DNA of 64,000 nucleotides, taken from NCBI GenBank assembly GCA_035494615.1, contig DATJGU010000118.1, positions 7,044 to 71,043 on the forward strand, in the 5' to 3' direction. Each line of letters opens with the position of its first letter. The stretch's first letter is position 1. Below are positions 14,310-33,800 of this stretch, in pieces. A program made the translations under genes and the position numbers. The notes below the pieces were generated by a model. The model saw only the letters and a program-made list of their open reading frames with translations. It was not told the DNA's origin and searched no databases. Origin of the DNA: Gemmatimonadaceae bacterium (GTDB taxonomy: Bacteria; Gemmatimonadota; Gemmatimonadetes; Gemmatimonadales; Gemmatimonadaceae).

Positions 14310-14321
14310 TCGGCGCCCGCG

Positions 14322-15469: not shown

Positions 15470-15520
15470 CTCGCGTGGGGAGGTGTTGTACGCCGGTGCC
15501 GAGACTGCACCGACTGAAAC

Positions 15521-15821
15521 GCGGATCGGGCGGATGACTGCGCGGATCGGGCGGATCGCCACTACTGGGCTGGATGCTCCTCGCGCCGGCCCGAATTGAG
15601 CGCGCTCGTTCGCGCACCGATCTCGGCGCCGAGGCCAGAAAGGCAAAGACTTTCGGGGTGTTGGGGCAGAGGGGTCGTGCGCCGATGCATTGGATCTCGA
15701 CTCCGCAGGCAAAGAAGAGCGTGAGGTCGTGCATGGAGAGAGGAGCGGTGCGCCGGTGCATGGAGCGCAACTCCGAGAGGAGCGGATCCGCTCGATCCGC
15801 GCAGTCATCCGCCCGATCCGC
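15521..15821. repeat. 301-bp element bounded by 40-nt imperfect inverted repeats (MITE-like or large hairpin)
   Basis: The left arm (15521-15560) pairs with the right arm (15782-15821) at 37/40 positions, the first 29 of them perfect. The spacer is 221 nt. Each arm itself contains the direct repeat GCGGATCGGGCGGAT. Confidence 0.55.
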
Positions 15822-16013
15822 TTGGAGGCAGTCGAGCCCCGCCACGTGAAGCGCGGTGGGGACGGGCGCTCCTGATGCAAGGCACCGGGCCGTGACAACC
15901 GTTCGTCGGGTGGTTTCGGCGGTTCGTCGAGTCGTCCTATCGGCCGGGGCGCGCCCGGGGACTTCGTGGATCGGCAGGCTGTGTCGAACCGCCGATCACG
16001 GAGACTCCACGCG

Positions 16014-18251
16014 ATGTCGTTCCATTCCCCCCGCTCGTTCGCCACGTGCTCGCTGGCCGCCGTGCTGGCGCTGGCCCTCGCTTCCCCCCTGGCGCTGTGC
16101 GCGCAGGCCGCGGCGCCGATGGAGCTCGCGCGGCTCACGCACGCCGTCCGTCTGGACGGCGTGCCGACCGCCGACGAGTGGGCGGGGGTGCCGCCCCTCC
16201 CGCTCACCGAGTACGCGCCGACCTTTCGCGGCACGCCGACTCAGCGCACGGAGATCCGCGTCGCCTACGACGACGAGTATCTCTACGCGGCCGGCTGGTT
16301 CTGGGACGACGACCGCGCCGGCGTGCGCGTGAATTCGCTCTATCGCGACCGGTGGAACGGCGACGACGCGTTCAACGTCTTCGTCGACGCCTTCAACGAC
16401 CATCAGACCACGAAGTGGTTCGGCACGACGCCGGGCGGCATGCGGTTCGACGTCCTGCTCTCCGACGACGCCAAGACGAGCAACGATGCGTGGGACACCT
16501 TCTGGGACGCCGCGACGACGGTGACGGACTCGGGGTGGTTCGCCGAGATGCGCATCCCGTTCTCCAGCCTCGGCTTCCACGCCGACGCCGACGGGAAGGT
16601 GGTGATGGGGCTCACCGTGACGCGCCTCGTCGCGCGGCGGAACGAGCGCGTCACCTTTCCGGCGATCGATCCCAAGTTCTACTTCGCGCAGCCGTCCGTG
16701 GCACAGAGCGTCGTGCTGCGCGACGTGCACACGCGAACGCCGCTCTACGTCACGCCGTACGTGCTGAGCGGCGCGTCGCGCAACGCCGTGGCACCGGCGA
16801 CCGGGACGGCGCAATACGGCACGCTCTCGCGCACGTCGCGCGAGGCCGGCGTCGACGTCCGCTATCCGCTCTCCGGCGATCTCACGCTCGACCTCACCTA
16901 CAACACGGACTTCGCCCAGGTGGAGGCGGACGAGCAGCAGGTGAACCTCGACCGCTTCCCCCTGTTCTACCCCGAGCAGCGGCGGTTCTTCCAGGAGAAC
17001 AGCGGCGTGTTCGACTTCGACTTCGGCGGCTTCGGCGCGACGGGACGGCTCTTCCACTCGCGGCGCATCGGCCTCGCGCCCGACTTCACGCCGATCCCGG
17101 TGCTCGGCGGCGCGCGCCTCGGCGGACGCGCCGCCGGATGGGACGTCGGGCTGCTCGAGATGCAGACGCAGCGGCAGGGCGCCTTCCCGAGCGAGCACTT
17201 CGGCGTGCTTCGCCTGCGGCATTCCGTGCTCAACGAGAACTCGACCGCCGGCTTCATGGCGACGTCGTTCGCCGGCGGCGGCCGGCGCAACCTGGCGCTC
17301 GGCACCGATGCGTCGCTCCGGGTGCGCCCGAACGAATATCTCGTGCTGAAGTGGGCGGGTACGGACGATGGCGCCGACTCCACGTCGCCCTCGCTGCTCG
17401 ACCGCAGCGTGATCGACGCGCGCTACGAGCGCCGCGTCGGGCGCGGGCTCCAGTACTCGCTCTCCGCCACGCGTGCCGGACGCGACTTCCACCCCGAGCT
17501 CGGCTTCACCCAGCGCACCGACTTCACCACGCTCAACGCGTCGGGGAACTATTTCATCTTCACGGACATGCACCCCACGCTGCAGCGCGTGTATCCCGGC
17601 GCGCTGGCGTTCAACACCTTCCGGAACGCCGACCACGCGCTCGAGTCGGGACAGTACGCGGTCTGGATCCAGTGGGACACGAAAGCGGGCGGCGGCGGCT
17701 GGATCGAGCCGAAGCTGTTCCACGAGAGCGTGCTCGCGCCGTTCGCCATCGGCCGCTCGACGTCCGTTCCCGCCGGCACGTACGATTTCGCCGATCTGCA
17801 GGCGGTGTACGCGATGCCGTTCGGCGCGCGGACGCGCACGAGCGTCGACCTGCGCGCCGGTCGCTACTTCGACGGCACGCGCGCGCAGGCGATCCTCACG
17901 CCGACGTGGAACGTGTCGCCGCACCTGGAGCTCGGCGGCGACTACCAGCTCACCGCGCTGCGGTTCGCCGACCGAGGCCAGTCGGAGAACATCCAGCTCG
18001 CGCGCCTGCGCGTGCGCGCCGCCCTCGACGTCCGTATGTCGGGAAACGCCTTCGTGCAGTACAATTCCACGAGCCACACGCTCGACGCGAACGTCCGCCT
18101 GCGGTACGCCTTCGCCGAAGGCACCGATCTCTGGCTCGTGTACAATGAGGGACTCGACACGCAGCAGGTGCGCGACCCGCTCGGCGAGCGTTCGCCGCTC
18201 TCCCTCTCGCGCTCGGTGATCGTGAAGTACACGCACACCTTCGACTTCTGA
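16014..18251 (+). CDS. DUF5916 / CBM9-like domain outer-membrane-type protein
   Basis: Trimmed to the ATG at 16014 (signal ...ALCAQA). N-terminal CBM9-like LDGVPTADEW...YLYAAGWFWD. Long beta-rich C-terminal region ending in an aromatic residue (HTFDF). Confidence 0.8.
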   Translation: MSFHSPRSFATCSLAAVLALALASPLALCAQAAAPMELARLTHAVRLDGVPTADEWAGVPPLPLTEYAPTFRGTPTQRTEIRVAYDDEYLYAAGWFWDDDRAGVRVNSLYRDRWNGDDAFNVFVDAFNDHQTTKWFGTTPGGMRFDVLLSDDAKTSNDAWDTFWDAATTVTDSGWFAEMRIPFSSLGFHADADGKVVMGLTVTRLVARRNERVTFPAIDPKFYFAQPSVAQSVVLRDVHTRTPLYVTPYVLSGASRNAVAPATGTAQYGTLSRTSREAGVDVRYPLSGDLTLDLTYNTDFAQVEADEQQVNLDRFPLFYPEQRRFFQENSGVFDFDFGGFGATGRLFHSRRIGLAPDFTPIPVLGGARLGGRAAGWDVGLLEMQTQRQGAFPSEHFGVLRLRHSVLNENSTAGFMATSFAGGGRRNLALGTDASLRVRPNEYLVLKWAGTDDGADSTSPSLLDRSVIDARYERRVGRGLQYSLSATRAGRDFHPELGFTQRTDFTTLNASGNYFIFTDMHPTLQRVYPGALAFNTFRNADHALESGQYAVWIQWDTKAGGGGWIEPKLFHESVLAPFAIGRSTSVPAGTYDFADLQAVYAMPFGARTRTSVDLRAGRYFDGTRAQAILTPTWNVSPHLELGGDYQLTALRFADRGQSENIQLARLRVRAALDVRMSGNAFVQYNSTSHTLDANVRLRYAFAEGTDLWLVYNEGLDTQQVRDPLGERSPLSLSRSVIVKYTHTFDF

Positions 18252-18255
18252 GCCG

Positions 18256-19380
18256 GTGGCGGCGGCGCGGTTCCGCGTGAGCTGGCGGCTCGTGCTGTTC
18301 GTGTGCGCCGGCTGGACGATCGCCGGCGCGCTGCTCGGCGCGCAGAGCGCGCTCGGCTCGGCGATGACGGGCGGTACCGTCGTCCCGCTCGGGAGGTCGG
18401 TGGCCGGCGCGATGGGGCAGACGCTGCCGTGGATCCCGGTCACGCTCGCCGTCGTCGCCCTCACGAGCCGGTTCCCGCTCGGCCGGGGGCTGTGGCGGCG
18501 ACATCTTCCGGTCCATCTCGTCGCGGCGCCGGTGCTCTCCTTCGTCGCCAACCTGCTCGTCGTGCTCGGCTTCTGGGCGCGTCTGGGCCGGTGGCGCGGC
18601 GTCGGGATGCTCGTGCAGCAGGGCGCGCTGTGGGGGACGGTGAACCTGCACGTCGCGCTGATGATCGACGCCGCGGTCGTCGGGATCACGTCGTGGGTGC
18701 TGCACTCGCGCGCGGCGCGGGCGCGGGAGCTCCACCTCGCGCAGCTCGAGGGACAGCTCGCCCGGGCGCAGGTCCAGGCGCTCAACGCGCAGATCCGGCC
18801 GCACTTCCTCTTCAACACGCTGCACAGCATCGGACAGATGTGGCGCTCCGGGCGAAGCGACGAGGCCGACGCCGTGCTCGACCGGCTCGGCGCGCTCTTC
18901 CACCGCGTGCAGCGGTGCACGGCGCGGTTCGAGGTGCCGCTCGCCGAGGAGCTCGATCTCGTGCGCGAGTATCTCGCGATCGAGCAGGCGCGGTTCCGCG
19001 ACCGCCTGCGCGTCGGCGTGCGCGCGGACGACGACGCGCTGGACTCGCTCGTGCCCCCGCTCATCCTGCAGCCGATCGTCGAGAACGCGATCCGGCACGG
19101 CGTGGCCGCCGTGTCGTCGGCGGGACGGGTGGACGTGAGCGCGGCGGTGCGCGGCGACCGCCTCGAGCTCGCCGTGCGCGACGACGGGCCGGGCATGGAC
19201 GCGCCGAGCGCGCAGCGGGGCTCGGGCACCGGGCTGCGCAACACGCGCGACCGGCTCACCCAGCTTCACGGCGACCGCGCCACGCTCCGCGTCTCGAGCG
19301 ACGCGCGCGGAACGACGGTGACGATCGAGCTGCCGCGGCGCGCGGCCGAGCGCCTCGAGGCGGATGCCGCGGCCGACTGA
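18256..19380 (+). CDS. LytS/YehU-type sensor histidine kinase
   Basis: TM-rich N-terminus. His_kinase motif QIRPHFLFNTLHSI. ATPase motifs IVENAIRHG and GTGLRNTRDRL. GTG start 4 nt after the upstream stop. Confidence 0.9.
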   Translation: MAAARFRVSWRLVLFVCAGWTIAGALLGAQSALGSAMTGGTVVPLGRSVAGAMGQTLPWIPVTLAVVALTSRFPLGRGLWRRHLPVHLVAAPVLSFVANLLVVLGFWARLGRWRGVGMLVQQGALWGTVNLHVALMIDAAVVGITSWVLHSRAARARELHLAQLEGQLARAQVQALNAQIRPHFLFNTLHSIGQMWRSGRSDEADAVLDRLGALFHRVQRCTARFEVPLAEELDLVREYLAIEQARFRDRLRVGVRADDDALDSLVPPLILQPIVENAIRHGVAAVSSAGRVDVSAAVRGDRLELAVRDDGPGMDAPSAQRGSGTGLRNTRDRLTQLHGDRATLRVSSDARGTTVTIELPRRAAERLEADAAAD

Positions 19381-20215
19381 AGCCGTGCCGCTGCGTGCCG
19401 TCGTGGTGGACGACGAGCCCGACGCGCGTGACGTCGTGCGGACGCTGCTGACCGCGCACGCGGGCGTGCGCGTGGTGGGGGAGGCGACGAACGGGCGGGA
19501 CGCCGTCGCCGTCGTCCGGCGCGAGCGGCCCGATCTGCTCTTTCTCGACGTCCAGATGCCCGACCTCGACGGATTCGGCGTGCTGGACGCGCTCGGCGCC
19601 GACGTGCCGCGCGGCGTCGTGTTCGTCACCGCGCACGACGAGCACGCGATCCGCGCCTTCGAGCTCCACGCGCTCGACTACGTGCTCAAGCCGTTCGGGC
19701 GGCCGCGCTTCGACGCGGCGGTCGCGCGCGCGGTCGAGCGCCTGGATGCGCTCGACGCGCTCACGCTCCAGCGCACGCTGGCGAGCATGGCCGACGATCG
19801 GCGCGCGCGCGACGAGCCGCCGGGCGAGCTCTCGCTCCCGCACGCCGACGCCGGCAAGCCCGCGGCGCGCGCGGCGCCGTTGCGGCGCATCGGGGTGCGG
19901 AACGGAAGTCGTGTCACGGTGGTGGACGTCGACGGCATCGACTGGCTCGAGGCCGACGGCGACTACGTGCGCATCCACGCCGGCAAGGCGAGCCACCTCG
20001 TGCTGCAGCGCATGCACGCGCTGGAGGAGGCACTCGATCCCGCCGCGTTCGTGCGCGTCCACCGATCGGTGATCGTGAACGTCGCGCGCGTCCGGGAGCT
20101 GCAGCGCGACGCGGACGGCGGCGGGAGCGTCGTGCTGAGGGACGGCGTTCGGCTGCGCGTGTCGCGATCGAGGTGGGCGGAGCTCGAGGGGGCGCTGGGG
20201 ATGGAGGCGCTGTGA
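19364..20215 (+). CDS. LytR/AlgR-family response regulator (receiver + LytTR DNA-binding domain)
   Basis: Receiver VVVDDEP...DLLFLDVQMPDLDG...KP. LytTR region IDWLEADGDYVRIH...FVRVHRSVIVN. The alternative start GTG at 19385 would avoid the 17-nt overlap. Confidence 0.9.
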   Translation: MPRPTEAVPLRAVVVDDEPDARDVVRTLLTAHAGVRVVGEATNGRDAVAVVRRERPDLLFLDVQMPDLDGFGVLDALGADVPRGVVFVTAHDEHAIRAFELHALDYVLKPFGRPRFDAAVARAVERLDALDALTLQRTLASMADDRRARDEPPGELSLPHADAGKPAARAAPLRRIGVRNGSRVTVVDVDGIDWLEADGDYVRIHAGKASHLVLQRMHALEEALDPAAFVRVHRSVIVNVARVRELQRDADGGGSVVLRDGVRLRVSRSRWAELEGALGMEAL

Positions 20216-20368: not shown

Positions 20369-21469
20369 GTGCGCGATCCCATGCTTCGACTCGCCCTCGC
20401 GTTCCTGCTCGTGACACTCGCCGGCGCGGGACGCTCTCTGCGCGCGCAACCGGCGCAGCACACCGTGCCGTCCGCCCGCGACATCGTGCACCGCTACATC
20501 GCCGCCCGCGGCGGGATCGAGAAGATGCACGCCATCCGCACGCTCCTCTTCCGCGGGCCGCCGCGTCCGAACGGCAAGCCGGGCCGGCAGATCCTCCGTG
20601 CGCGGCCGTACTACTTCACCATCGGCGCCGAGGGAAACGACGGGTCGCCGTGGGAAACGTACGACGAGTACGGGCTCCAACCGCGCGTCACGGACGCGCC
20701 CGGCGCGGCGCTGCGGCACGCGGCGTACTTCGACGATCCGCTCGTCATGTCGCTCGAGCCGGGATGGGCCGTCGAGCTCACCGGCTCGGAGACGGTCGCC
20801 GGGCACGACGCGTGGCGTCTCCGCGTCACCTACCCGGACGGCTTCGTCAGCGAGTCGTTCGTGGACAAGGAGAGCTGGCTCCTCGTCGCGCGGCGGTTCA
20901 CCGCGCCGGTGCACGCCTTCGGCGAACCGGCCACGAGCCAGGCGGTCTTCGGCGACTGGCGCGCCGTCGCCGGCGTGCTCTTTCCCTTCTCCCTGCGCGA
21001 GGTCGATCTCGCCACCGGCGAGCCGATGGACGAGTCGACGTGGCAGTCGATCGAGGCGAACGTGCCGCTCGCGCCCTCGGCGTTCGCTCCACCGCCGCGC
21101 AGGGACACGCCGGTCGCGCGGCTCGTGAACGCGATCTTCGCCGCGCGACACGTCCCCGCCGACGCGCTCGGCTGGTACCACGACTTCCTCCGCGATCCAG
21201 CGACGTCGGGCGTCGACGTCGAGGGCGCGATCGAGTCGGTCGCGTACGAGTGCCTCAAGAACGGCGCGATCCCGACGGGCACCGCGCTCCTCGAAGACAA
21301 CCTGCGCGCGCATCCCTCGTCGGCGCGCGCGCACTTCGGGCTCGGCCGTGCGTTCCGCGCCGCCGGTCGGGAAGCGGACGCGCTCGAGCGATTCCGGGAA
21401 GCGATGCGGCTCGACTCGACGCTCGTCGCGGCGAAGGATGCGCTCGCGAGCGCGCGGTTGCGCTATTGA
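20369..21469 (+). CDS. hypothetical secreted protein with C-terminal TPR-like helices
   Basis: Signal MLRLALAFLLVTLAGAG. Non-repetitive composition with high GC3. C-terminal helical ARAHFGLGRAFRAAGREADALERFREAMRLD. Start is 20369 (GTG) or 20381 (ATG). Confidence 0.6.
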   Translation: MRDPMLRLALAFLLVTLAGAGRSLRAQPAQHTVPSARDIVHRYIAARGGIEKMHAIRTLLFRGPPRPNGKPGRQILRARPYYFTIGAEGNDGSPWETYDEYGLQPRVTDAPGAALRHAAYFDDPLVMSLEPGWAVELTGSETVAGHDAWRLRVTYPDGFVSESFVDKESWLLVARRFTAPVHAFGEPATSQAVFGDWRAVAGVLFPFSLREVDLATGEPMDESTWQSIEANVPLAPSAFAPPPRRDTPVARLVNAIFAARHVPADALGWYHDFLRDPATSGVDVEGAIESVAYECLKNGAIPTGTALLEDNLRAHPSSARAHFGLGRAFRAAGREADALERFREAMRLDSTLVAAKDALASARLRY

Positions 21470-21490: not shown

Positions 21491-21823
21491 TCACGTCCAC
21501 TCGGTGATCCTGTTTCCTTCCCCGTCGGTGAACTCGCCGGTCACGAGCATGATCAGGTCGTACAGCATCCAGATCCCCAGGCCCCCGAGCGTGAAGAGCT
21601 GGAGGAGCGCGGTGCCCGTCTTCCCGACGTAGAACCGATGCGCGCCGAACACGCCCAGAAAGACGCACAGCAGGCCGGCCGGGAGAATGTGCTTGTCCGT
21701 CGCCAGCTCCGGCGGCAGCGGCTGCATCACGCCGCACGACGTGCACACCACCGCTTCGTGGTCGATCAGGCGCCCGCAGGCGTGACACGGCCTGACCGGG
21801 CGAGCGGGGAGATAGGAACCCAT
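21491..21823 (-). CDS. TM2-domain protein with N-terminal zinc-ribbon
   Basis: Trimmed to the ATG at 21823. CHACG...CTSCG ribbon followed by GVFGAHRFYVGKTGTALLQL...GIWMLYDLI (TM2 signature). Confidence 0.8.
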   Translation of the reverse strand: MGSYLPARPVRPCHACGRLIDHEAVVCTSCGVMQPLPPELATDKHILPAGLLCVFLGVFGAHRFYVGKTGTALLQLFTLGGLGIWMLYDLIMLVTGEFTDGEGNRITEWT

Positions 21824-21945
21824 CCGATTTCGAACCGAAGAAGGTGCGCGCGACGATCGCCCGATGACCGGCAGCGAGTCGAGCGGGGTCGGCTCGCTGC
21901 TGCCCGGAATCTGGCGCCGGACGACGCGAGGGGGATAGGGGCTCC

Positions 21946-22875
21946 CTAGCCCGTCCTGACGCTTCGCTCCTCCTCCACGTACGCGACCGCGCCCTTCACC
22001 GGCGCGATTCCCTTCCCGTATCGCTGCGCCCAGAGCTTCGTGAACTCGGCGCCGAAGAGCAGGATCATCGACGTGTAGTAGACCCAGATCAGCACGAGCG
22101 CGAGCGAGCCGGCGGCGCCGTACACGCTTCCCGGGTCCGAGCTGCCGAGATAGACGCCGATCAGCGTGCGGCCCAGCACGAACAGCAGTGCCGTCCCGAT
22201 CGCACCGATGCCCACGTCGCGCCAGCCGATGCGCGCGTCGGGGAGATAGCGGAACATCGCCGCGAACAGCAGCGCGACGACGAGAAAGCTTCCGAGCGCG
22301 GTCGCCACCTGGAGCATCGACGCCGGAATGCCGTACCGCGTCGTCAGCGCCGAGCTGATCGCCTCGATGACGGTGCTCAGCGCCAGCGAGACGAGCAGGA
22401 GGAACGCGATGGTGATCAGGATCCCGAACGAGAAGACACGCTTGACGAGGAAGACGCGGATCTGGTTCCGTCGAGGATCCGGCTTCACCCCCCACGCCTT
22501 GTTGAGCGCGGACTGCAGCTGCGCGAAGGCGGTCGTCGCGCCGAACACCAGCGCGAAGAGCGAGACGATCGTCGCCACGGACGCGGCGTCCTGCGAACGC
22601 CCTGCGTTGCTGATGATCGACTCCACCTGCGCCGCGCTCGCCGGCCCGATGAGCTTCGTCACCTGATCGGTGATCGCGTGCTCGACCTGCGCGGGCTCGG
22701 TGAAGCGGCCGACGAGCGCGAGCAGCAGCGTGAGCAGCGCGGGCAGGGAGAAGAAGGTGTAGAACGACAGCGACGCCGCCATGCTGGAGCATCCGTCGCC
22801 GAAGAAGGCGTAGATCGCGGCCCAGAGGAGCCGAAGGAAGCCGCGCAGCGTGGCGACGACGCCCGGCCGGTGCAT
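21946..22875 (-). CDS. YihY/BrkB-family membrane protein
   Basis: AASLSFYTFFSLPALL, six hydrophobic segments and LLFGAEFT. Core called from the ATG at 22875. A longer N-terminus from GTG at 22968 or 23043 cannot be excluded. Confidence 0.85.
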   Translation of the reverse strand: MHRPGVVATLRGFLRLLWAAIYAFFGDGCSSMAASLSFYTFFSLPALLTLLLALVGRFTEPAQVEHAITDQVTKLIGPASAAQVESIISNAGRSQDAASVATIVSLFALVFGATTAFAQLQSALNKAWGVKPDPRRNQIRVFLVKRVFSFGILITIAFLLLVSLALSTVIEAISSALTTRYGIPASMLQVATALGSFLVVALLFAAMFRYLPDARIGWRDVGIGAIGTALLFVLGRTLIGVYLGSSDPGSVYGAAGSLALVLIWVYYTSMILLFGAEFTKLWAQRYGKGIAPVKGAVAYVEEERSVRTG

Positions 22876-23196
22876 CTCGCGGGCGGCGTCGCGCGCGCGC
22901 GCCGTCTCGTCGGTGGAGCGGCGGAGCACCTCGTGCGGCTCGTCGGCGGTGCCGTGGTCGGCGGTCACGATTCGATCATCATGGTCGAGTGCTCGGGTAA
23001 CGCCTCGCGGCGGGCCTGCACCATGTCCGCTTGCATGCCGCACGCCCGAATGACGGACTCGGCGCGATCGGCCGGCCCGTCCGGTTCCGCACTCCAGCGG
23101 CGTCTCCTCCGGGCCGATACTTCAGAGAGGCGGAGTGACCTTCGTCGCCCTGGTTCGTTGTCCCTTCGGGCCCGCCCTCTCCAGGAGACCACCCGT

Positions 23197-23370
23197 ATGT
23201 CCAGGTCCACGGCAACCGATGCGACGACGCATGCGGCGCACGACCCGAAGCGGCCCTACGTGCGTCCGCTGCTGAAGCGCTACGGCGACCTCGCGCAGCT
23301 CACGCAGCAGAAGGGCCGGTTCGGAACGGACTCCGACGGCGCGCTCGCCAACAACAACAAGACCATCTGA
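23197..23370 (+). CDS. candidate RiPP (lasso-like) precursor peptide, 57 aa
   Basis: AGGAGA sits 8 nt upstream of the ATG. The peptide is MSRSTATDATTHAAHDPKRPYVRPLLKRYGDLAQLTQQKGRFGTDSDGALANNNKTI. Its leader fits YxxPxLx3Gx5Tx (Y21, P24, L26, G30, T36). It lies 27 nt upstream of the kinase gene. Confidence 0.6.
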   Translation: MSRSTATDATTHAAHDPKRPYVRPLLKRYGDLAQLTQQKGRFGTDSDGALANNNKTI

Positions 23371-23397: not shown

Positions 23398-24354
23398 GTG
23401 CGACGGATCCACGGTCTCGCCATCGAGGCGAACGTCGCGCTGCCCGGCCTGCCCCGGTGCGACGCGGGGGCGCCCGACGTGGTGCTCGAGCTGGTCGGCG
23501 AGCTCGCGCCGCCCGCGCCTCGACGCATCCGCTATCGCGCCGGCGCGCCTGACGCGCCCTCCGCGCGCGTCGAAGTCGCCGACGACGCGAACGGCGTCAC
23601 CACCTTCCGCTACGGCGACGGCTCGGCGATCGACGTCGACCTGCGCGGTCGGGCGGCACGCATCCGCGCGGCGATCGCGCCCGGCCAGACGCTCGAGGAT
23701 CTCTGCGCCTACCTCTACGGCCCGGTGCTCGGCTTCGTGCTCCGCGCGCGCGGCACGCTCGCGCTGCACGCGAGCTGCGTCCGGCTCGGCGACGGCGCGG
23801 TGCTCATCGCCGGGCCCGCGGGCGCAGGCAAGTCGACCACCGCCGCCGCGCTCGCCGCCCGCGGTGCCGCGGTGCTCTGCGACGACCTCACCGCGCTCGA
23901 ATTCCGGAACGGCCGGGTGCTCGCCTGGCCGGCGTTCGATCACCTGCGTCTCTGGCCCGACGGCGGCCGCGTCGTGCTCGGCGACGCCCCCCTCGAGCGC
24001 ATCACGCCGGGCTGGGACAAGCGCCGCTTTCCGCTCGCCGGCGAGTCGTTCGCCGCGGAGCCGACGCCGGTGCGGACCATCGTCGTGCTCCACGGCCGCC
24101 GAGCGCGGGCGCGCGCCACGATGCGTACCGTCGCACCGGCACGCGCCGTGCTCACGCTCGCGTCGCTCAGCTACGCGAACTACCTGCTCGACGCATCGAT
24201 GCGCGCGCACGAGCTCATGCAGCTCGGCGCGCTGCTCCGCGCGGTGCCCGTGCGCGCGCTGACCGTCCCCGCGGGGCACGAGGCGCTCGATGCGCTGTGC
24301 GAGGCGATCGCCCGCACGGCCCGCGAGTCGCGCACCGCATTCACCCGCGCATGA
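23398..24354 (+). CDS. HPr-kinase-related P-loop kinase (HprK-related kinase A-like)
   Basis: LHASCV...AVLIAGPAGAGKSTTAAAL Walker A in an HprK C-terminal-domain-like context. GTG start. Confidence 0.8.
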   Translation: MRRIHGLAIEANVALPGLPRCDAGAPDVVLELVGELAPPAPRRIRYRAGAPDAPSARVEVADDANGVTTFRYGDGSAIDVDLRGRAARIRAAIAPGQTLEDLCAYLYGPVLGFVLRARGTLALHASCVRLGDGAVLIAGPAGAGKSTTAAALAARGAAVLCDDLTALEFRNGRVLAWPAFDHLRLWPDGGRVVLGDAPLERITPGWDKRRFPLAGESFAAEPTPVRTIVVLHGRRARARATMRTVAPARAVLTLASLSYANYLLDASMRAHELMQLGALLRAVPVRALTVPAGHEALDALCEAIARTARESRTAFTRA

Positions 24355-25478
24355 GCTACTCGCTCGAGGAGTACGCGCGGATGCTCGTGGAACCGATCCG
24401 CGCATCGGCTTACTTCGCCGCGCTGCGCGAGACGGTACGCCCGGGGATGGTCGTCGCCGACGTCGGTGCCGGCCCCGGCGTATTGGGGGTCTACGCCGCG
24501 ACGCTCGGCGCGCGGCGCGTGTTTCTCGTCGAGCCGGACGCGTCGGTGTACGCGGCGCGTGCGCTCGCGGTGGAGAACGGCGTGACCGACCGCGTCGAGG
24601 TGATCCGCGCACGGTCCACCGACGTCGAGCTCCCCGAGCGCGCCGACGTGATCGTCTCCGACCTGCGCGGCGTCACGCCGTTTCACGGGCAGCACCTCGC
24701 CGCCGCCGCCGACATGCGCCGGCGTCTCCTCGCGCCCGGCGGCACGTGCATCCCGAAGCGGGATCGGGTGTGCGTCGCGCTGGTCGAGGACGAGGCACTG
24801 TACGCCCGCACGGTGCGCGGATGGTCGGAGCTTCCCGTGCCACTCGCGACCGGATCGCTCGAGCGGCTGCTCGCCAATCGCTGGTATCGCGCCCGCGCCA
24901 CGCCGGCACAGCAGCTCTCGGCGCCCGCCCCGTTCGTCACGCTCGACTACGATTGCCCTGCGCCGCCGCTCCACGCGCGCTTCGACGCCGAAGCGACGCG
25001 CGATGGAACCGCGCACGGGCTGCTGCTCTGGTTCGACACGGAGCTCGTGCGCGGCATCGGCTTCTCGAACGCGCCCGAGGCGCCGAGCGCGCTGTACGGT
25101 CAGGCGTTCTTCCCCTTCGCGCCGGCGATCCCCGTGCGGCAGGGCGAGCGGCTCGCGCTCGAGCTGCGCACCGTGCTCTCCGGCGACGACCATGCGTGGA
25201 GCTGGTCTGCGGTCGACGAGCACGGCCGGGGCGCGCGCCATGCGTCGCTGCTCGGGATCCCGCTCGACGCCGACGCGCTCGCGCGTCGAGCGGGCAGGGC
25301 GGTGCCGCGCCGCTCGCTCGAGGGGGAGATCGCGCTCGCGATCCTCCAGGCGGCCGACGGCGGCGCCACGATGGACGACATCGCGCACGCGCTGAGCGCG
25401 CGCTTCGGCGAACGGTTTCCCTCGCCGCAGCAGGCGCTCGACTACGTCACGAGTCTGGAGACATTGTGGGAGCGGTGA
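24351..25478 (+). CDS. PRMT-fold class I SAM methyltransferase with C-terminal PqqD-like (RRE-like) tail
   Basis: ATGA overlap with the kinase stop. N-terminus YSLEEYARMLVEPIRASAYFAALRE..VVADVGAGPGVLGVYAATLGARRVFLVEPD parallels the PRMT motif I / post-I layout. A beta-barrel-like middle region follows. The tail is GEIALAILQAADGGATMDDIAHALSARFGERFPSPQQALDYVTSLETLWER. Confidence 0.75.
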   Translation: MSYSLEEYARMLVEPIRASAYFAALRETVRPGMVVADVGAGPGVLGVYAATLGARRVFLVEPDASVYAARALAVENGVTDRVEVIRARSTDVELPERADVIVSDLRGVTPFHGQHLAAAADMRRRLLAPGGTCIPKRDRVCVALVEDEALYARTVRGWSELPVPLATGSLERLLANRWYRARATPAQQLSAPAPFVTLDYDCPAPPLHARFDAEATRDGTAHGLLLWFDTELVRGIGFSNAPEAPSALYGQAFFPFAPAIPVRQGERLALELRTVLSGDDHAWSWSAVDEHGRGARHASLLGIPLDADALARRAGRAVPRRSLEGEIALAILQAADGGATMDDIAHALSARFGERFPSPQQALDYVTSLETLWER

Positions 25479-26662
25479 CCTCGTCCGTCGCCGCCACGCG
25501 CGACACGCGTGCACGCACGTGGACGCTGCTCCTCGCCTGCGCGCGCCGCGCCGCGGGGATCGGGGACGTCGGCGAGGTCGTGGCCGCGGCGCAGGCGATC
25601 GACGACTGGGACCTCGTGCACCGGCGCGCGGACGCGCACGGTCTGCTTCCGTGGCTCGCCCGCGCACTCGCCGAGGGCGCCATCGCCGAGGGCGCCCGCG
25701 CGCCGATCACCGCCGCCGCGAGCGTCGTCGCGGCCCGCACGCTCGGGCAGGCGCGCCGGCTCGGCGAGCTGGTCGCGGCACTCGGCGACGCGGGTATCCG
25801 CGCGATGCCCTACAAGGGGCCGGCGCTCTCGCTCCAGCTGTACGGCGATCTCGCGCTTCGCCAATCGGTGGACCTCGACCTCGTCGTGCCGCGCGCCGCC
25901 TACGCGCGTGCGCGCGACGTGCTCTCGCGGCTCGGCCTCACGCCGCGCGGCGGCCACTCGCCGCGCCAGGAGCGCGCGCTCTTCGCCTGGCTCGGCCACG
26001 CGCCGTTCGGCCGCGGCGACGACTTCGTCGAGCTGCACTGGCGCTTCGCCGACCGGCGGTTTCCCTTCGTGCTCGACGCCGATCGCGCGCTCGACCGCGC
26101 GCACCCCACGAGCGTGGCGGGCCGCACGCTGCCGCTCATGGCGCCCGACGACCTGCTCGTCACGCTCGCGATGCACGGCACGCGACATCTCTACGAGCGC
26201 CTCGAGTGGCTCGCCGGCGTCGCGCGACTGCTCGCGTCGGCCCCCGACGACGCCTCGCGCCTCGCCGAGCACGCGGCGTCGCTCCGTGCGGGGCGGATGC
26301 TGGCCGTGAGCGTCCACCTCGCCGGCCGAGTGCTCGCGTGGCCGGTCGGCGACCCATGGCGGCGCGAGCTCGCGCGCGATCCGGCCGCGGCCGCGATCGC
26401 CGCACGCATGGCCGCCGAGCTCGAGGCGCACGAGCTGGACGACCGTCCGTGGCCCGCCGGCGCCGCCCTGCTCCACCGCTACGCCGAGCTGCTCGACGCA
26501 CCGCTCGACCGTGCGCGGCTCTTCGTCCGCGCGGCGCTCGCGCCCACCGCGCGCGATCACGAGGCCCTCGCGCTCCCGGACGCGCTCCTGCCCCTCCACC
26601 GCGTGCTGCGCCCCTTCCGGCTCGCGGGCAGGTACCTGGCCCGCGCGCTGAGCACCGGCTAG
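25475..26662 (+). CDS. uncharacterised nucleotidyltransferase family protein (NTP_transf_5-like)
   Basis: GTGA overlap with the MTase stop. AMPYKGPALSLQLYGDLALRQSVDLDLVVP...FVELHWRF matches the family signature as I recall it. Confidence 0.75.
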   Translation: MTSSVAATRDTRARTWTLLLACARRAAGIGDVGEVVAAAQAIDDWDLVHRRADAHGLLPWLARALAEGAIAEGARAPITAAASVVAARTLGQARRLGELVAALGDAGIRAMPYKGPALSLQLYGDLALRQSVDLDLVVPRAAYARARDVLSRLGLTPRGGHSPRQERALFAWLGHAPFGRGDDFVELHWRFADRRFPFVLDADRALDRAHPTSVAGRTLPLMAPDDLLVTLAMHGTRHLYERLEWLAGVARLLASAPDDASRLAEHAASLRAGRMLAVSVHLAGRVLAWPVGDPWRRELARDPAAAAIAARMAAELEAHELDDRPWPAGAALLHRYAELLDAPLDRARLFVRAALAPTARDHEALALPDALLPLHRVLRPFRLAGRYLARALSTG

Positions 26663-28443
26663 CCGTTCGTTCGGAGCCAGCGATCGAGCAGCCGGAGGCG
26701 CAGGTGCGCGAGTGCGTCGTCGGTGCTCGACCGCACGCTGATCTTCTTCAGCGCGCCGACGTCGACGTAGCGCGCGAGGGCGTCCGAGGGCCTGAACTCG
26801 ATCGGCCCGCGCGCCCACCACTGCGTCAGCCGCGCCTCGTGCAGGCCGGCCAACCCGCGCTTCGGCGCGGTGCGCACCGCGTCGGGGATGAGCCCGCGCG
26901 CCGCCTCGCGGAGGAGCCGCTTGTGCTGCATCCACGGGATCGGCGGCGTCGCGAGCGCGTAGTCGATCAGGCGCAGATCGAGATAGGGCAGCCGCACGTC
27001 GATCGGAATGCCGTGGAATCCGGCGTCGAGCGATTCGAGAAACGGCTGCCAGTGATACTGCTCGAGGCGCCGCGCCACCTCCGATCGCGTCGGATGGCTC
27101 GGCTCGGCGCGCGTGCGCAGTCGCTCGGCGCGGCGCGCGCGAAGATCGGCCCGCAGCCACGCCGGCCCGGGATCGATCACTCCTCGGCGACGGCGCCGGA
27201 ACAGGAGCTCGCGCAGCCGGAGGTGGGGTCGCGCGCCCTCGCGCCACGCGTACGCGAGCACGTCGGTCGCCACGCGCGGCGCCGAGCTCCCGCGCAGCAG
27301 ATCGAGCAGGTGCGGTGGCGCGAGATAGGCGTCGGGATCTTCGCCCCAGAACGCCACCGGCGAGTGCTCGCAGGCGCGGCGCAGCTCGTCCTGAAGGGCG
27401 AGCAGATCCAGATCGCCATGCGGCTCCGGCGTGGCCGGCACGCGGTACCGGGTCCCTTCCCGAAACCCATACTCGTCCACGTCGGTGAGCACTTGCGGGA
27501 TGCCGATGAACCGCGCGGCGAGCTGCGCACGCCCGGTGTCCTCGCTCGGCAGCAGCGTCGGCAGGTAGGCCGTGCGTGCCACCACCTGCGAGCGGTCGCC
27601 GAGCTCGCGCGCGGCGATCGCGGCGAGCGTCGTGGAGTCGATTCCGCCGCTCATGAACACGGACACCGACGAGACGCGGAGCCGATCGCGCACGCTCGCC
27701 TCGAGGCGCGCCCGGAATCCGCCGACGATCTGCTCGGGGCGCCGCGAGCGATCGACGGGCGGCGTGGGAAGCGTCCAGTAGCAGCGCGACGCCACGCCGC
27801 CGTCGCGTCCGACGCGCACCACGTGCGCCGCCGGCACGCGACGCACGGCGCGGAACGTCGTCGTGGCCGGATTCTCGTTGAATCCCTCCGCCACGAAGTC
27901 CGCGATCGCGTCCTCGTCGAGCTCGCGGCTCACGCCGGCGTCGAGCACGGCGCCGAGCGTGTTCGACGCGACGAGCCGCGTCTCGTCGAGATGATAGAAG
28001 AGCATCCGCACGCCGAACGGATCGCGGACGAGCGCCGTCGTCCGCGCCTCGACGTCGTGGATCACCGCACTGAAATCGCCGAGCAGCCGCGCCGGCGCCT
28101 CGTCACCCCACGCGCACCACGCGCAGGCGAACAGCCGCACGTCGGGATCGGTGTCGTTCACCGGTACGTTCGCGCGATGCAGCGCCTCGGTGAGCTCCGC
28201 GCGCGCGTCGAGCCGTATCTGGCCGGCCACGACGTAGCGCCCTTCGGTGGACCACGCGGGGGCGAGCCGCAGATCGCCGACGTCGAGCAGCGCCGACGCC
28301 GCGCCGAACACCCCGTCCATGACGACGCTCTCGCCGTGCGGACCGCGATGGCGCATCGCCGGCAGGAGCGCGCGCAGCTCCGACTCGGCGACGTCCGCAT
28401 CGTCGCGCCGGACGACGGCGGCGTAGCCGGTCATCGGATGGCG
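26659..28443 (-). CDS. asparagine synthetase-family protein lacking the Cys2 nucleophile (lasso cyclase-like)
   Basis: Trimmed to the ATG at 28443. The N-terminus is MTGYAAV, not MCG. PP-loop VFMSGGIDSTTLAA. 594 aa. Its stop codon overlaps the NTase stop (CTAG at 26659-26662). Confidence 0.85.
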   Translation of the reverse strand, partial: RHPMTGYAAVVRRDDADVAESELRALLPAMRHRGPHGESVVMDGVFGAASALLDVGDLRLAPAWSTEGRYVVAGQIRLDARAELTEALHRANVPVNDTDPDVRLFACAWCAWGDEAPARLLGDFSAVIHDVEARTTALVRDPFGVRMLFYHLDETRLVASNTLGAVLDAGVSRELDEDAIADFVAEGFNENPATTTFRAVRRVPAAHVVRVGRDGGVASRCYWTLPTPPVDRSRRPEQIVGGFRARLEASVRDRLRVSSVSVFMSGGIDSTTLAAIAARELGDRSQVVARTAYLPTLLPSEDTGRAQLAARFIGIPQVLTDVDEYGFREGTRYRVPATPEPHGDLDLLALQDELRRACEHSPVAFWGEDPDAYLAPPHLLDLLRGSSAPRVATDVLAYAWREGARPHLRLRELLFRRRRRGVIDPGPAWLRADLRARRAERLRTRAEPSHPTRSEVARRLEQYHWQPFLESLDAGFHGIPIDVRLPYLDLRLIDYALATPPIPWMQHKRLLREAARGLIPDAVRTAPKRGLAGLHEARLTQWWARGPIEFRPSDALARYVDVGALKKISVRSSTDDALAHLRLRLLDRWLRTNG

Positions 28444-28569
28444 ATCCTCGGCGCGCGGTGGCTCACGATGTGGCGAGGGAACGGGAGATGCGACGCTCTG
28501 AATAGACGCGCTTCGGAAGGCCGCCGCCATTCCATGTTGCCCGCCGCCAGCGCGCGCCGTCGATTGCGG

Positions 28570-29235
28570 ATGCCCATGTCGCACCCGACCTCGCGCCCCG
28601 AACCGGCGGCCCTGCGCCGGCAGCTCGCCGCCCTGCTCCGCCCGTACGTCGACGGCACCGGCGCCGGAATCGAGTCCTCCCTGCTGACCCGCGCGCGGGT
28701 CGCCGCCACCGCGCGCGACGCCGCGGCCGCCGTGCTGCCGCTGCTCGGCACTCCGGCACCGTCGGCACATCGGGTGCGCGGCGCGATCATGCCGGCGCTC
28801 GTGTGCTCGTGGGCCGAACTGGACACGGTTTTTGCGCAGACCCTCGACCGGCTGCTCGCGCTCCCGCCGGCGCTCCCCGACGTGCCCGACCCCGCGTGGG
28901 ACGCCGGCCTCGAGGAGACGCGGGCGTCGCGTCCGCGGGCGCGCGCCGAGCACCCCGACTGGACGCCGACGACCCCCGAGGCGGAGACGGTGACCGGTCC
29001 CGCCGGCAGCGTCGGCGTGGTGGTGCGCGCCGACCGCCGCCACGTGCTCATCGTCGAGGACGGCCGCTCGCTGCGCACGCATGCGCGTTGCCGCTGCGAC
29101 CCGCTGCGTCGTCGCGAGCGGGGCGAGGTCGCGTTCGAGCTGATCGCCCTCGGGCGCCGCCGCGCCGTGCTCGACGTGCGCGCCGGATCCGCCTGCGCGC
29201 TGTGCCGCGCGCCGATCGAGCCGGCCCGTCCGTGA
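28570..29235 (+). CDS. hypothetical protein, C-terminal CxC...CxxC
   Basis: 221-aa frame with consistently high GC3, whereas the opposite-strand ORFs are Ser/Arg-rich junk. RCRCD...CALCR near the C-terminus. Its stop overlaps the next start (GTGA). Confidence 0.5.
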   Translation: MPMSHPTSRPEPAALRRQLAALLRPYVDGTGAGIESSLLTRARVAATARDAAAAVLPLLGTPAPSAHRVRGAIMPALVCSWAELDTVFAQTLDRLLALPPALPDVPDPAWDAGLEETRASRPRARAEHPDWTPTTPEAETVTGPAGSVGVVVRADRRHVLIVEDGRSLRTHARCRCDPLRRRERGEVAFELIALGRRRAVLDVRAGSACALCRAPIEPARP

Positions 29236-30697: not shown

Positions 30698-30865
30698 GAA
30701 GCCTCCAGGCAGGACTGGTTGCGGTCGGCTACGCCGATCGTGCCGATCGGTGTTCTCGCACTCGCTGGCGATGTTCGTGCTCGGGGCGCAGGGAGCCGAC
30801 GACGCGCAAACGTAACACCGGTTCGCCATTGACGCAGCGTGCAGCGGCGCGCAGCGTCAGCCTTC

Positions 30866-33800
30866 ATGTACGGGACGTATGGCGTGGTGTGTCCGACGCT
30901 CGTCGGCCGCGACGGGGAGGTCGGCGCGGGCCGGTCCCTCCTCGAGCGTGTGCAGGCGGGCGCGGGCGAAGTGGCCCTCATCGTCGGCGAGGCGGGGGTG
31001 GGGAAATCGCGCCTTCTCCGCGCGCTGCTGGACGACGCGCGCAGCCGCGGCTTCTTCGTGCTCCGCGGCTCGAGCTTCGAGGCCGACACGCCGATCCCGT
31101 ACGCCCCGCTGCTCGATCTGGTACGGCTGTTCGCCGAGTCGGCGTCGCCGGCGCTCATCGCACACGTGCTCGAGCCGGCCGCTCCGGAGCTCGTGGCGGT
31201 CTTCCCCGAGCTGCGCTCGATCTTCCCCGACACCGCCCCGGGCACGACCGCGGATCCGGACCTCGCGAGGCGCCGGCTCTTCCATGCGCTGGCGCACACC
31301 GTCGACCGGGTCGCGCAGACGCAGCCCGTGGTGCTCGCGTTCGAGGACGTGCACTGGAGCGACGACGCGACGCTCGATCTGATCTTCCATCTCGTCCGCA
31401 GCGAAGCGTCGCATCCGGTGGCGGTCGTCCTCAGCCGGCGGCCCGATGAGGGCAGCGCGCGACTCGCGCAGCTCGTCGCGGAGCTCGAACGCGCCAGAGT
31501 CCTCACGGAGATCCCGGTGCGTGCGCTCGCACGCGACGGCATCGAGGAGATGCTCCGCGCCATCTTCGGCGCGCAGGCCGGGCTCGGCGCCGACTTCGTC
31601 GACATGCTGCACGGGCTCACGGAAGGCAATCCGTTCTTCGTCGAGGAGACGCTCAAGGCGCTGATCGTCGCCGGCGACCTCACGCAGCGCGACGGCGGCT
31701 GGCGCGCGCAATCGCTCGAGCGTGTTCGCGTCCCGCGCACGGCCGTGGAGGCGGTCCGTCGCCGCCTCGCCACGCTCACCGTGCCGGCGCGCCTGCTCGC
31801 CTCGACCGCGTCCGTCGCGGGACGCCGGTTCGACTTCGAGCTGCTCCGGACGGTCACGCGCGCGGAGGAGCGGGAGCTCCTCGTGCTGATCAAGGAGCTG
31901 ATCGGCGCGCAGCTCGTCGTCGAGGAATCCGCCGATCGATTCGCCTTCCGCCACGCGCTCACTCGCGAGGCCATCTACGTCGATCTCCTGGCACGCGAAC
32001 GGATCACGCTGCACCGCGAGATCGCCGCCGCCCTCGAGCGGTCGAGCACCGAGGCGGTCGATCCGGTCGTCGAGTCGCTCGCCTACCATACGTGGGAGGC
32101 CGGAGATTGGGTCGCCGCGGCGCGCTATTCCGTCCGTGCGGCGGAGCACGCGATGGCGCTCTCGGCGCCGCGGGAGGCCGTCGGACACCTCGATCGCGCC
32201 TTCGACGCCTCCGAGCGCGGAGGGGTGCAGGTGGGAATCGGCCTCCATCTCGCGCGCGGACGCGCCAACGAGACCCTCGCCGAATTCGACGGCGCGCTCG
32301 CGGACTTCACCGCTGCGCTCGAGCTGGCGCGCGCCGCAGCCGACGAGCGCGCCGCGTGGGAAGCGCTTCATGCACTCGGCAAGCTGTGGGCGGCGCGCGA
32401 CTACGTTCGGGCCGGCGAATACCGGCGCGACGCGCTCGACATGGCCCGCACGATCGGCGACGACTCCCTGGTGGCACGGAGCCTCAATCGCGTCGGCAAC
32501 TGGCACGTGAACGTCGAGGAGCCGCGGGCGGGGCTGCCGCACCACGAGGAGGCGCTCGCGATCTTCGAGCGCCTCGGTGATCCCGACGGTGTCGCGGAAA
32601 CGGTGGACCTGCTCGCCATGGCGCACCACATCGCCGGCGACCAGCGCGCCGCCGCGCTGCACTACGAGCGCTCGGTCGCGCTGTTCACCGAGAGGGACGA
32701 CCGGCGCGGCCTCGGTAACGCGCTGGCACTCCTGGCGCTCTGCGGACCGTCGTATCACGCCTCGTCCACCACGCCGTTCGCCGCCAGCGCGGTGCCCGCC
32801 GAGCTCGCGTCGCCGCGCTCGATTCAGCTCGCGCGAGAGATCGGTTGGCGGGCCGGCGAGGCGTTCGTCCGGTTCCTCATCGCCGACTGCCTCGCGTGGC
32901 GAGGGGAGTACGACCGCGCCATTCCGTTGGCGCGCGAGGCGCTGGAGCAGGCAGAGCAGATCGGACACCTCGAGTGGGCGGCCGGCGCGCACCGTCTGTT
33001 GGGCATGATCGCGCTCGACCTCACCGCGCCTCTCGCCGCGCGGACGCACCTCGAGGCGGCACACGCCGCCGCGTGTGCGCTCCGCTCCCTCGTCTGGGTG
33101 CGGTGGACGGCCGCGCCCCTGGCCGTGGCGCGCCATCTCACGGGGGACCCGGCCGCCGCGAGGGACGCTCTCGATCACGCAGCGCGATCGCGACCGGAAA
33201 GCGAAGATCGCTCCGCCGCGGCGCCTGGCGACGCACTCCTCACCCTCGGCGAGCGGCAGCTCTGGATGTCGTGCGCCGAGCTCGCCCTGCTCGACCGTCG
33301 TCCCGGCGAAGCGCTGGCGATCGTGGATGCACGACTGGCGCGGGAGCGCGCCGCCAATGCGGAATCGAGATTCGGCGTGCCGCGACTCTCGCTGATACGC
33401 GCTCGTGCGCTGCACGCGCTCGGCGACATCGACGACGCCCTCGCCGCGCTCGATGTCGCGCGATCGCACGCCCAGGCCCAGGGCGCGCGGCCGATGCTGT
33501 GGATGATCGAGTCCGCCGCAGGCCAGGCGCATCGTGCGCTCCGTCGACGGCTCGCCGCACGGCAGGCGTTCGACCGCGCAGAGGCGATCGGCGCCGAGCT
33601 CGCGGCGACCATTCCGGACGACTCGCTCCGCGCCACCTTCCTCGATGGGCTGGCCTCGATCGTTCCCGCCGCCCCCGCTCCCTCGCCGGCTCGCCGCGCC
33701 AGGGACGCCGCCGGCGGGCTGACGCGACGCGAGCGCGACGTCGTGCGGCTCGTCGCCCATGGCAAGGCGAACAAGAGGATCGCGCACGACCTCGGGATCG

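Follow-up and report, generated by a model that had tools for sequence, protein, structure and literature searches.

What is an enzyme with the fold of the protein arginine methyltransferases (PRMTs) doing among the genes of a lasso peptide cluster, and which group does it methylate? The question is raised by a gene, here called M, in a 64,000-nucleotide stretch of a Gemmatimonadaceae bacterium genome (contig DATJGU010000118.1, positions 7,044 to 71,043; "the window" below means this whole stretch). An initial annotation, made from the sequence letters, read its product as a PRMT-like methyltransferase that carries a PqqD-like tail, that is, a module resembling the recognition element (RRE) of the pathways of RiPPs, peptides that are made on ribosomes and modified after translation. 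Our analysis indicates that M belongs to the PRMT superfamily, that the motifs of its S-adenosylmethionine (SAM) site are kept and that its acceptor pocket looks rebuilt. We give slightly better than even chances to the reading in which it is a peptide-tailoring methyltransferase that acts on the lasso precursor, with an acceptor other than arginine and with its tail aiding leader binding. The parts of M on which the argument turns are these:

24351..25478 (+), gene M: PRMT-fold SAM-dependent methyltransferase with a C-terminal three-helix domain; 375 amino acids, ATG start, MSYSLEEY...LWER
24450..24488 (+), motif I, the SAM-binding loop (V34-VADVGAGPGVLG-46), followed by the acidic post-I residue E61; aligns to motif I of PRMT6
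24657..24695 (+), equivalent of the double-E loop, S103-D-L-R-G-V-T-P-F-H-G-Q-H115; from the alignment to PRMT6
24765..25169 (+), PRMT-type β-barrel/oligomerisation subdomain, residues 139-273; Pfam PRMT_C PF22528 at 42.9 bits (cutoff 27), AlphaFold2 (AF2) strands, Foldseek
25089..25106 (+), equivalent of the THW loop, A247-L-Y-G-Q-A252; aligns to T-H-W-K-Q-A of PRMT6
25305..25475 (+), C-terminal domain, residues 319-375: an extended VPRRS, then helices 323-334, 341-351 and 359-368

The fold, SAM site and acceptor pocket of M

The GC content at third codon positions (GC3) of M in its own frame is 0.88-0.94, in a window of 72 % GC, and protein searches return hundreds of full-length homologs, so the open reading frame (ORF) is a real, expressed-looking gene. 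Residues 1-298 of its product are a PRMT-type Rossmann domain and β-barrel. The initial annotation had proposed a PRMT layout followed by a barrel-sized region, and Pfam, phmmer and structure prediction agree on it: residues 24-134 match generic class-I methyltransferase and PrmA families in Pfam, and the barrel matches PRMT_C as listed above. A phmmer search against PDB sequences aligns residues 7-272 with PRMT6, CARM1 and PRMT1 at E values of 1e-22 to 1e-17, and its top matches are all PRMTs (PRMT6 at 7e-22, CARM1 at 1e-19, and PRMT7, 8, 1, 3 and 2). The AF2 model, built from a 20-sequence alignment, has a mean predicted local distance difference test score (pLDDT) of 89.8 and a predicted template modelling score (pTM) of 0.77, and in Foldseek it matches PRMT6, PRMT1, Hmt1 and CARM1 at E~1e-26 with target-normalised template modelling (TM) scores of 0.75-0.84.

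The SAM apparatus is kept in full: motif I VVADVGAGPGVLG, E61, a VELP motif and the N-terminal helix motif M11-x-x-D14-x-x-R17...Y21. The helix motif and motif I are at least 90 % conserved across the family alignments, and the motif I loop is invariant or nearly so in both of them (20 and 116 sequences). Read from these residues, the SAM site is intact. Like the type I PRMTs (PRMT1, PRMT6, CARM1/PRMT4 and yeast Hmt1), M thus has the Rossmann domain, the β-barrel with its arm, the N-terminal helix motif, motif I, the post-I acid and VELP. Unlike them it has D104...G113 with R106, P110 and H115, an ALY, and an extra 57-residue helical tail; it is also bacterial and encoded in a RiPP cluster, and the peptides associated with the family often have no Arg at all.

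The double-E loop and the THW loop are the elements that define arginine recognition, the two Glu residues of the former binding the guanidinium group. Both are replaced in M. Where PRMT6 reads S-E-W-M-G...H-E-S, M reads S103-D-L-R-G...H112-G113-Q, so that the first Glu has become D104 and the second G113. S103-D-L-R-G-V-x-P110, H115, D121, R125 and A247-L-Y-G-Q-A252 are invariant in the 20 sequences of the close family (down to 52 % identity), and D104, G107, P110 and Y249 are invariant or at least 90 % conserved among 116 representatives of 30-50 % identity. Since the replacements are strictly conserved in the family, they are not decay, and M looks like an active enzyme whose acceptor pocket has been re-engineered. 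The remark that the double-E loop was not obviously conserved, and the chemistry therefore open, was well founded. Of the features that mark a PRMT, M has the fold and the SAM motifs and lacks the double-E loop, the THW loop and a conserved substrate Arg.

M is a member of a sizeable family. A profile search of 1.84 billion representatives found 1,989 proteins at E < 1e-30, which fall into 150 or more clusters at 50 % identity; the top 150, each from a different cluster, are nearly all 370-390 residues long and match to about profile position 370 with more than 310 bits, so the tail is an integral and ancient part of the family. The species-representative genomes that carry it belong to Gemmatimonadaceae/Gemmatimonadales, Acidobacteriota (Vicinamibacterales, Bryobacterales), Pseudomonadales and Planctomycetota, with one cyanobacterial metagenome-assembled genome (MAG). 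Two subfamilies can be told apart by their pocket loops, and both bear the tail: the window type has SDLRGV...H with (L/I)YG, and a distant type (in loci L018, L022 and others; the loci are described below) has SVMTGNFLL(N/E)ED with THW, and so keeps only the second Glu of the double-E loop plus an intact THW. No curated NCBIfam model covers the family, and the public names of its members ("PRMT1", "50S ribosomal protein L11 methyltransferase", "16S rRNA G966 N2-methylase RsmD") are guesses. In one metagenomic protein of 633 amino acids (P0141), a PhyH-type Fe/2-oxoglutarate dioxygenase domain replaces the tail and is joined to the family methyltransferase (residues 1-316).

The lasso cluster and the methyl acceptor

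Lasso peptides are a heavily mined class of natural products whose known tailoring chemistry is limited. The RiPP context that the initial annotation had supposed for M is a lasso cluster, A-K-M-N-C, with the following genes around M:

23197..23370 (+), gene A: lasso-type precursor peptide, 57 amino acids; Shine-Dalgarno-like AGGAG 9 nt upstream; weak matches to NCBIfam lasso_cyano and lasso_leader_L3
23398..24354 (+), gene K: HprK-like peptide kinase, 318 amino acids, P-loop GPAGAGKST; Hpr_kinase_C at E 2e-5 and TIGR04352 HprK_rel_A at E 4e-9, both below cutoff
25475..26662 (+), gene N: NTP_transf_5 family protein of the PsmN type, 395 amino acids; Pfam PF14907 at E 1e-44
26659..28434 (-), gene C: full-length lasso cyclase, Asn-synthetase-like, 591 amino acids, convergent with N; Asn_synthase at E 7e-21, GATase_7, and NF033535 at E 1e-49 (below cutoff)

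The hallmarks of a lasso system are present: a YxxP leader, a core with G1...D8 (conserved in at least ten loci) and an Asn-synthetase-like cyclase. The start of M shares 4 nt with the stop of K (ATGA, 24351-24354), and 4 nt are likewise common to its stop and the GTG start of N (GTGA, 25475-25478); from these overlaps, K, M and N are translationally coupled.

About 33 loci that carry the family were mapped with hidden Markov models (HMMs) and jackhmmer (they are numbered in the series L001 to L035 here); all-versus-all clustering of ORFs was swamped by antisense ORFs at this high GC. In essentially every adequately covered locus the kinase gene adjoins M, and the two are often accompanied by NTP_transf_5, a cyclase and an ABC exporter; such K-M loci span Gemmatimonadota, Acidobacteriota, Pseudomonadales, Bryobacterales and the cyanobacterial MAG. 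The loci of Acidobacteriota, Pseudomonadales and Bryobacterales, plus L010, L017, L020 and L035, also encode B2, the transglutaminase-like peptidase that acts on the leader, and one or two stand-alone lasso-type PqqDs, the RRE protein B1. These B2 proteins score 59 and 77 bits against NF033537 (cutoff 33) and have the GGNCLERG and GHAWV motifs. Since distant loci thus hold a bona fide B2 with a lasso-type PqqD, the M-bearing loci are genuine lasso clusters, and M is a recurrent accessory of a kinase-type subclass of them. Neither PqqD nor B2 is found in the window clade (the window, L001, L003-L008 and L034) or in L012 and L013. L034 shares the upstream synteny of the window and has no cyclase within 10 kb, so A-K-M-N is a conserved module.

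Over the whole 64 kb of the window the best match to the PqqD HMM has E 6 and the best to the B2 HMM E 0.36, so the earlier statement that there is no stand-alone B1 nearby holds; the missing B2 and the tight coupling of M to the kinase go beyond that note. No ABC exporter was found in the window either, and a search of the window clade for a conserved alternative leader protease found none (a Peptidase_M3 is present in L001 only).

In the paeninodin and pseudomycoidin systems the kinase phosphorylates the C-terminal Ser of the linear precursor, and PsmN adds a hexose to the phosphate (PMC9266682, PMC8498205). Like the clusters of paeninodin PadeK, of ThcoK and SyanK and of pseudomycoidin PsmK/PsmN, the window has an HprK-like kinase and an NTP_transf_5 protein together with A and C. 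It differs from them in its PRMT-like methyltransferase, which none of those clusters has, in the position of the conserved hydroxyl residue, which is penultimate (K-T-x) and not C-terminal, and in the absence of B1, B2 and the ABC exporter from the window.

Which residue of the precursor would M modify? The leader holds YxxPxL (as PYVRPLL) and ...GDLAQLT, of which YxxPxL is strongly conserved in the window clade, and the predicted core, GRFGTDSDGALANNNKTI, has a G1-D8 ring and a conserved NNNKT near its C-terminus. The precursor is 65-75 % identical in at least ten loci, and its alignment gives the window-clade core consensus G1-x-x-G4-x-x-x-D8-G-A-(L/I)-(A/V)-N-N-N-K-T-x. The target that the initial annotation implied, R41, is position 2 of this core, and it fares badly: the position is R, M or K among close orthologs, Arg is absent from 6 of 16 related cores (15 of which contain Lys), and the aligned leaders have no universally conserved Arg. 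Given the loss of the double-E and THW loops and this lack of a conserved Arg in core and leader, arginine methylation is unlikely as the function of the family. What does recur is a K-(S/T) pair, as NNNK-T in the window clade, SK-T/S in other Gemmatimonadota, GK-SG in Acidobacteriota and GK-TRG in L035; K-[ST] is found in 7 of 10 lineages, where shuffles that preserve composition predict 2.45 (P ~0.0005, in a post hoc comparison of lineages that are only roughly independent). K and M are always adjacent and co-translated, so in the simplest model their targets are residues next to each other. PrmA is a methyltransferase of Lys and α-amines, and the Rossmann domain of M is, by Pfam, as close to PrmA as to anything else. 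From this sequence evidence we infer that the methyl acceptor is not arginine, and that the Lys of the K-(S/T) motif, or the phospho-product of the kinase, is likelier.

We therefore favour a scheme in which M would methylate the 57-residue precursor or its phosphorylated form, working with K and N. The most likely acceptor would be the ε-amine of K16 in the pair K16-T17 near the C-terminus of the core, T17 being the presumed target of the kinase; alternatively, K and N would install a phosphate or sugar-phosphate, and the methyl group may go to one of its oxygens.

The precursors of these loci also differ in the spacing between the leader Thr and the ring acid. In canonical precursors beside family members (L035, and the second precursors of L012 and L013) the acid lies at Thr+9, with Thr at -2. 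The window clade and other Gemmatimonadota precursors have an invariant D-G at Thr+11 (the window at 23305-23318, L001, L003, L005-7, L010, L015-17, L020 and L034), and L011-L013 have it at Thr+10. As aligned, the Thr+11 spacing means that either the Thr sits at -4 or the ring has 10 residues, which would be unprecedented. The spacing does not follow whether B2 is present. The second precursors just mentioned (L012, 7843-8031, -; L013, 8274-8648, -) read ...RELTQ/GGSSANYD... and are encoded just upstream of the B1/B2-less K-M-C cluster.

The tail, the leader and the alternative readings

A three-stranded β-wing and three helices define an RRE, and in real RREs strand β3 and helix α3 contact the leader. 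The tail of M is a well-modelled domain (AF2 pLDDT 88-95 in the full chain, 83-97 for residues 296-375 alone), in which P319, L332, A345, P353 and A362 are at least 90 % conserved among the 116 diverse members. Its likeness to PqqD, claimed in the initial annotation, stands in part: the tail is indeed a helical domain, and four methods agree on PqqD as its closest match, but every score is sub-threshold and the β-wing is missing. On the tail alone Pfam PqqD has E 0.016 (PF05402, 13-16 bits against a cutoff of 23.4) and TIGR03859 has E 0.09; PqqD is the only non-methyltransferase among the 25 most-matched Pfam families, found in 21 of the 116 members (best E 0.0015). Tail profiles run against PDB sequences place PqqD 3g2b first (E 0.017) or second (E 0.022), with two further PqqD chains in the short lists. 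Foldseek with the tail model also puts 3g2b first, but at E 0.56 and on three helices without a wing (probability 0.69, TM 0.43-0.48, root-mean-square deviation 10.8 Å), and the other matches are generic three-helix or winged-helix domains, with no lasso B1 structure among the 45. An hhalign comparison of diverse tails with 21 stand-alone PqqDs of related loci gives a collinear β3-α1-α2-α3 alignment (P ~0.001, probability 19-21 %) in which the tail's conserved L and G fall on the L-x-x-x-G of PqqD, whose L38 and G42 are its only two invariant columns. When a narrow tail alignment (17 sequences) is compared with the same co-occurring PqqDs the hhalign probability is under 1 %, at BLAST level six stand-alone PqqDs showed no match to the tail or to any other part of the window, and searches of the PqqD HMM against tails and of the tail HMM against PqqDs gave no cross-matches.

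Like PqqD and lasso B1 (3g2b; NF033530, NF033536), the tail has the β3-α3 pattern ...P-x-L-x-x-x-G...L..(M)DG..(S/T)...IA..L...F...AL..V..L and sits in a lasso cluster with a YxxP leader, the motif that such domains bind. Unlike them it has no β1-β2 hairpin and its β3 is modelled as coil, and whereas the RRE of lasso B proteins is N-terminal, the tail is fused to the C-terminus of an enzyme. It passes no curated RRE model and has no three-stranded sheet. The tail may be a wing-less PqqD derivative that keeps the β3 and α3 elements; descent from PqqD is on balance probable, and for binding of the leader, a putative function, we would put the chances somewhat below even.

Is the tail a substitute for B1, as the initial annotation suggested? 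Its distribution is mixed. The tail is present without PqqD or B2 in the window, L001, L003, L005-L007, L012 and L034; it is present beside one or two PqqDs in L002, L010, L011, L018, L019, L021-L025, L027, L028, L030, L031 and L035; and it is absent from L017 and L020, which have PqqD and B2. Because the tail is mostly found beside PqqDs, it is ancestral and not an innovation of the B1-less clusters, and in most clades it co-occurs with one or two PqqDs and B2; the idea that it replaces B1 is in this sense not supported, and strict substitution was discarded as a general rule. That L017 and L020, which have a PqqD, lost the tail is in keeping with a leader-binding role that can be complemented. 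In eight loci (L021, L022, L023, L025, L027, L028, L030 and L031) two PqqD genes flank M (at 9682-9951 and 11148-11381 in L022), so that, counting the tail, the Acidobacteriota/Bryobacterales clusters have up to three RRE-like modules. Two PqqDs plus a tail in Acidobacteriota fit a pattern of one RRE per enzyme, and they fit a different function of the tail equally well. RiPP tailoring enzymes commonly have an RRE of their own (PMC12710340). The window clade keeps a conserved YxxPxL, so something still reads its leader, and the window offers no candidate for this but the tail.

In the reading that we prefer, the tail would be a wing-less descendant of a PqqD-type RRE that helps to hold the YxxPxL leader during modification of the core by the catalytic domain, and in the window clade, with neither B1 nor B2 nearby, it would be the only RRE-like module of the cluster. 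A more specific form of this scheme, in which the window clade has dropped B1 and B2, a wing-less RRE remnant on a PRMT-fold enzyme is the sole reader of the leader, and that remnant guides N-methylation of the Lys beside a phospho-Thr, is distinctly improbable. Several observations weigh against the preferred reading. Neither AF2 model has a β-strand in or just before the tail, and no comparison of the tail with PqqD reaches significance. Most tail-bearing copies stand beside PqqDs, and L013 has neither tail nor PqqD; in its copy of M (10001-11005) a deletion of about 190 bp removes the tail, the stop codon overlaps the start of the cyclase gene, and no PqqD lies within 20 kb of it. B1 and B2 could lie beyond the window, in another part of the genome. 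The support that the K-[ST] pair lends to a Lys acceptor is indirect, as a basic residue beside Ser/Thr could merely be a determinant of the kinase.

How far do other readings account for the same facts? That M is a housekeeping PrmA or RsmD methyltransferase lying near a lasso cluster by chance is suggested by the public names and by the Pfam PrmA match of the Rossmann domain, but the NCBIfam prmA model TIGR00406 gives only 35 bits against a cutoff of 183, and on the Rossmann part alone; M has a PRMT β-barrel, which PrmA lacks, and the synteny with K, N, C and A, with overlapping genes, extends over some 30 loci in several phyla, so this reading is effectively refuted. A genuine arginine methyltransferase acting on R41 would agree with closest solved relatives that are all PRMTs, with the acidic D104 left at the first double-E position and with the single Arg, at position 2, of the window core; against it stand the family-wide Gly in place of the second Glu and ALY in place of THW, and the variable position 2, the Arg-free cores and the leaders described above, which make it very improbable. 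Methylation of oxygen in an anionic group, whether the phosphate or sugar-phosphate from K and N or the C-terminal carboxylate, with no N-methylation of a side chain, is a rather unlikely but better supported alternative. M is tied to the kinase in essentially all adequately covered loci and overlaps both K and N, in place of the acidic pair stand an invariant R106 and H115 that would, as the alignments read, suit an anionic substrate, and both a phospho-hexosyl Ser made by a kinase with an NTP_transf_5 enzyme (pseudomycoidin) and C-terminal O-methylation (lassomycin-type peptides) are known in lasso systems (PMC9266682). However, the characterised enzymes of PRMT fold are all N-methyltransferases, D104 is retained, the second Glu and THW of the distant subfamily point to a cationic acceptor, and the known lasso O-methyltransferases have other folds (PMC9266682).

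The most substantial competitor concerns the tail and not the chemistry: it may be a module for docking or oligomerisation (with the kinase, NTP_transf_5, the cyclase or itself), the leader being read by B1 in trans or by the kinase. The missing wing, the sub-threshold similarities, the one or two stand-alone PqqDs beside the tail in most clusters, the translational coupling of K, M and N (which suggests a complex), the tail-less L013 without PqqD and the PhyH dioxygenase domain in the place of the tail in P0141 all favour it. Yet by four independent methods PqqD repeatedly scores best among known domains, with a collinear alignment in which the L and G positions match; an RRE of its own would be nothing unusual for a RiPP tailoring enzyme (PMC12710340); and the window clade has kept its YxxP leader with no other RRE-like module. 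We regard docking as the less likely function, though one to be taken seriously.

Surrounding genes and relation to known lasso systems

The genes around the cluster offer candidates for functions missing from it. Upstream of A lie genes for a TPR protein (20369-21469, +), a TM2 protein (21494-21901, -) and a BrkB/YihY membrane protein (21946-23043, -), and the same trio precedes A-K-M-N in L034; the BrkB/YihY gene is divergent from the precursor gene, and its product could serve export or immunity in this clade without an ABC exporter. Still farther upstream are a LytS-type histidine kinase and a LytTR response regulator (18256-20215, +), and downstream is a 1032-residue AAA_16-TPR-LuxR (MalT-like) regulator (30839-33937, +); either the LytS/LytTR pair or the MalT-like protein could regulate the cluster. 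An ORF of about 225 codons with high GC3 (28560-29235, +) is divergent from the cyclase gene, has no Pfam or NCBIfam match, and is not found beside the cluster in other loci. The product of 34434-35477 (+), picked up by the HMM of the catalytic domain, was rejected as a relative of M: it is a Methyltransf_11/25 class-I enzyme that shares only the Rossmann fold.

Two features of related clusters may be recorded here. In L033 (= L007), seven genes (12894-16555) lie between NTP_transf_5 and the cyclase, among them two small unannotated ORFs and genes for a GNAT acetyltransferase, a metallophosphatase, a second class-I methyltransferase and an ArsR-type regulator. Conserved in seven Acidobacteriota clusters, L021-L023, L025, L028, L031 and L032 (8758-9552, -, in L022), is a protein of some 264 amino acids with a HAD-like N-terminus (DLDGT).

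The lasso methyltransferases described so far are of two types only, for C-terminal O-methylation and of the PIMT type (PMC9266682). StspM and LasF methylate the carboxyl group at the C-terminus and PIMT-type TceM and LihM lead to aspartimide formation, and the linear precursor is the substrate of StspM, which works ahead of B1, B2 and C (PMC9266682, PMC8498205). M resembles these four in being a SAM-dependent enzyme encoded within a lasso cluster. It differs in structure, as StspM and LasF are similar to mitomycin-7-O-methyltransferase, TceM and LihM are PIMTs, and neither pair has a PRMT barrel or a PqqD-like tail; unlike the known lasso methyltransferases, the M family is moreover linked to a kinase. 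No description of a PRMT-type enzyme linked to lasso peptides was found in the full-text literature searched, and a 2025 structure-based survey of RREs gives new RRE fusions, among which the fusion seen in M does not appear. The M family probably installs a modification of lasso peptides not yet described.

The sole precedent for a lasso cluster with neither B1 nor B2 is that of triculamin (triA, triC, triD, triT) (PMC12070363). The cyclase of the triculamin system is truncated at its N-terminus, and the system has a follower sequence and does not depend on a YxxP-type leader; in the window the cyclase is full length (GATase and Asn_synthase) and the leader keeps its YxxPxL. The B1/B2-less layout with an intact YxxP leader thus bears on how leaders are removed outside the canonical scheme.

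The M family would add a third, structurally unrelated type to the lasso methyltransferases, and its wide occurrence among uncultured phyla of soil and sediment (Gemmatimonadota, Acidobacteriota) suggests that many lasso peptides bear an undescribed modification. It is also a natural case of a scaffold typical of eukaryotes, that of the PRMTs, re-tooled for another acceptor. If the tail is a minimal RRE, made of β3 and three helices, it would mark a lower size limit for a leader-binding module, and current RRE finders would miss such tails. Should the tail prove to be the only reader of the leader and the Lys the methylated residue, the lasso peptide would bear a "methyl-phospho" pair, and M would be the first case in which a bacterial RiPP pathway uses the PRMT fold to tailor a peptide at a residue other than arginine.

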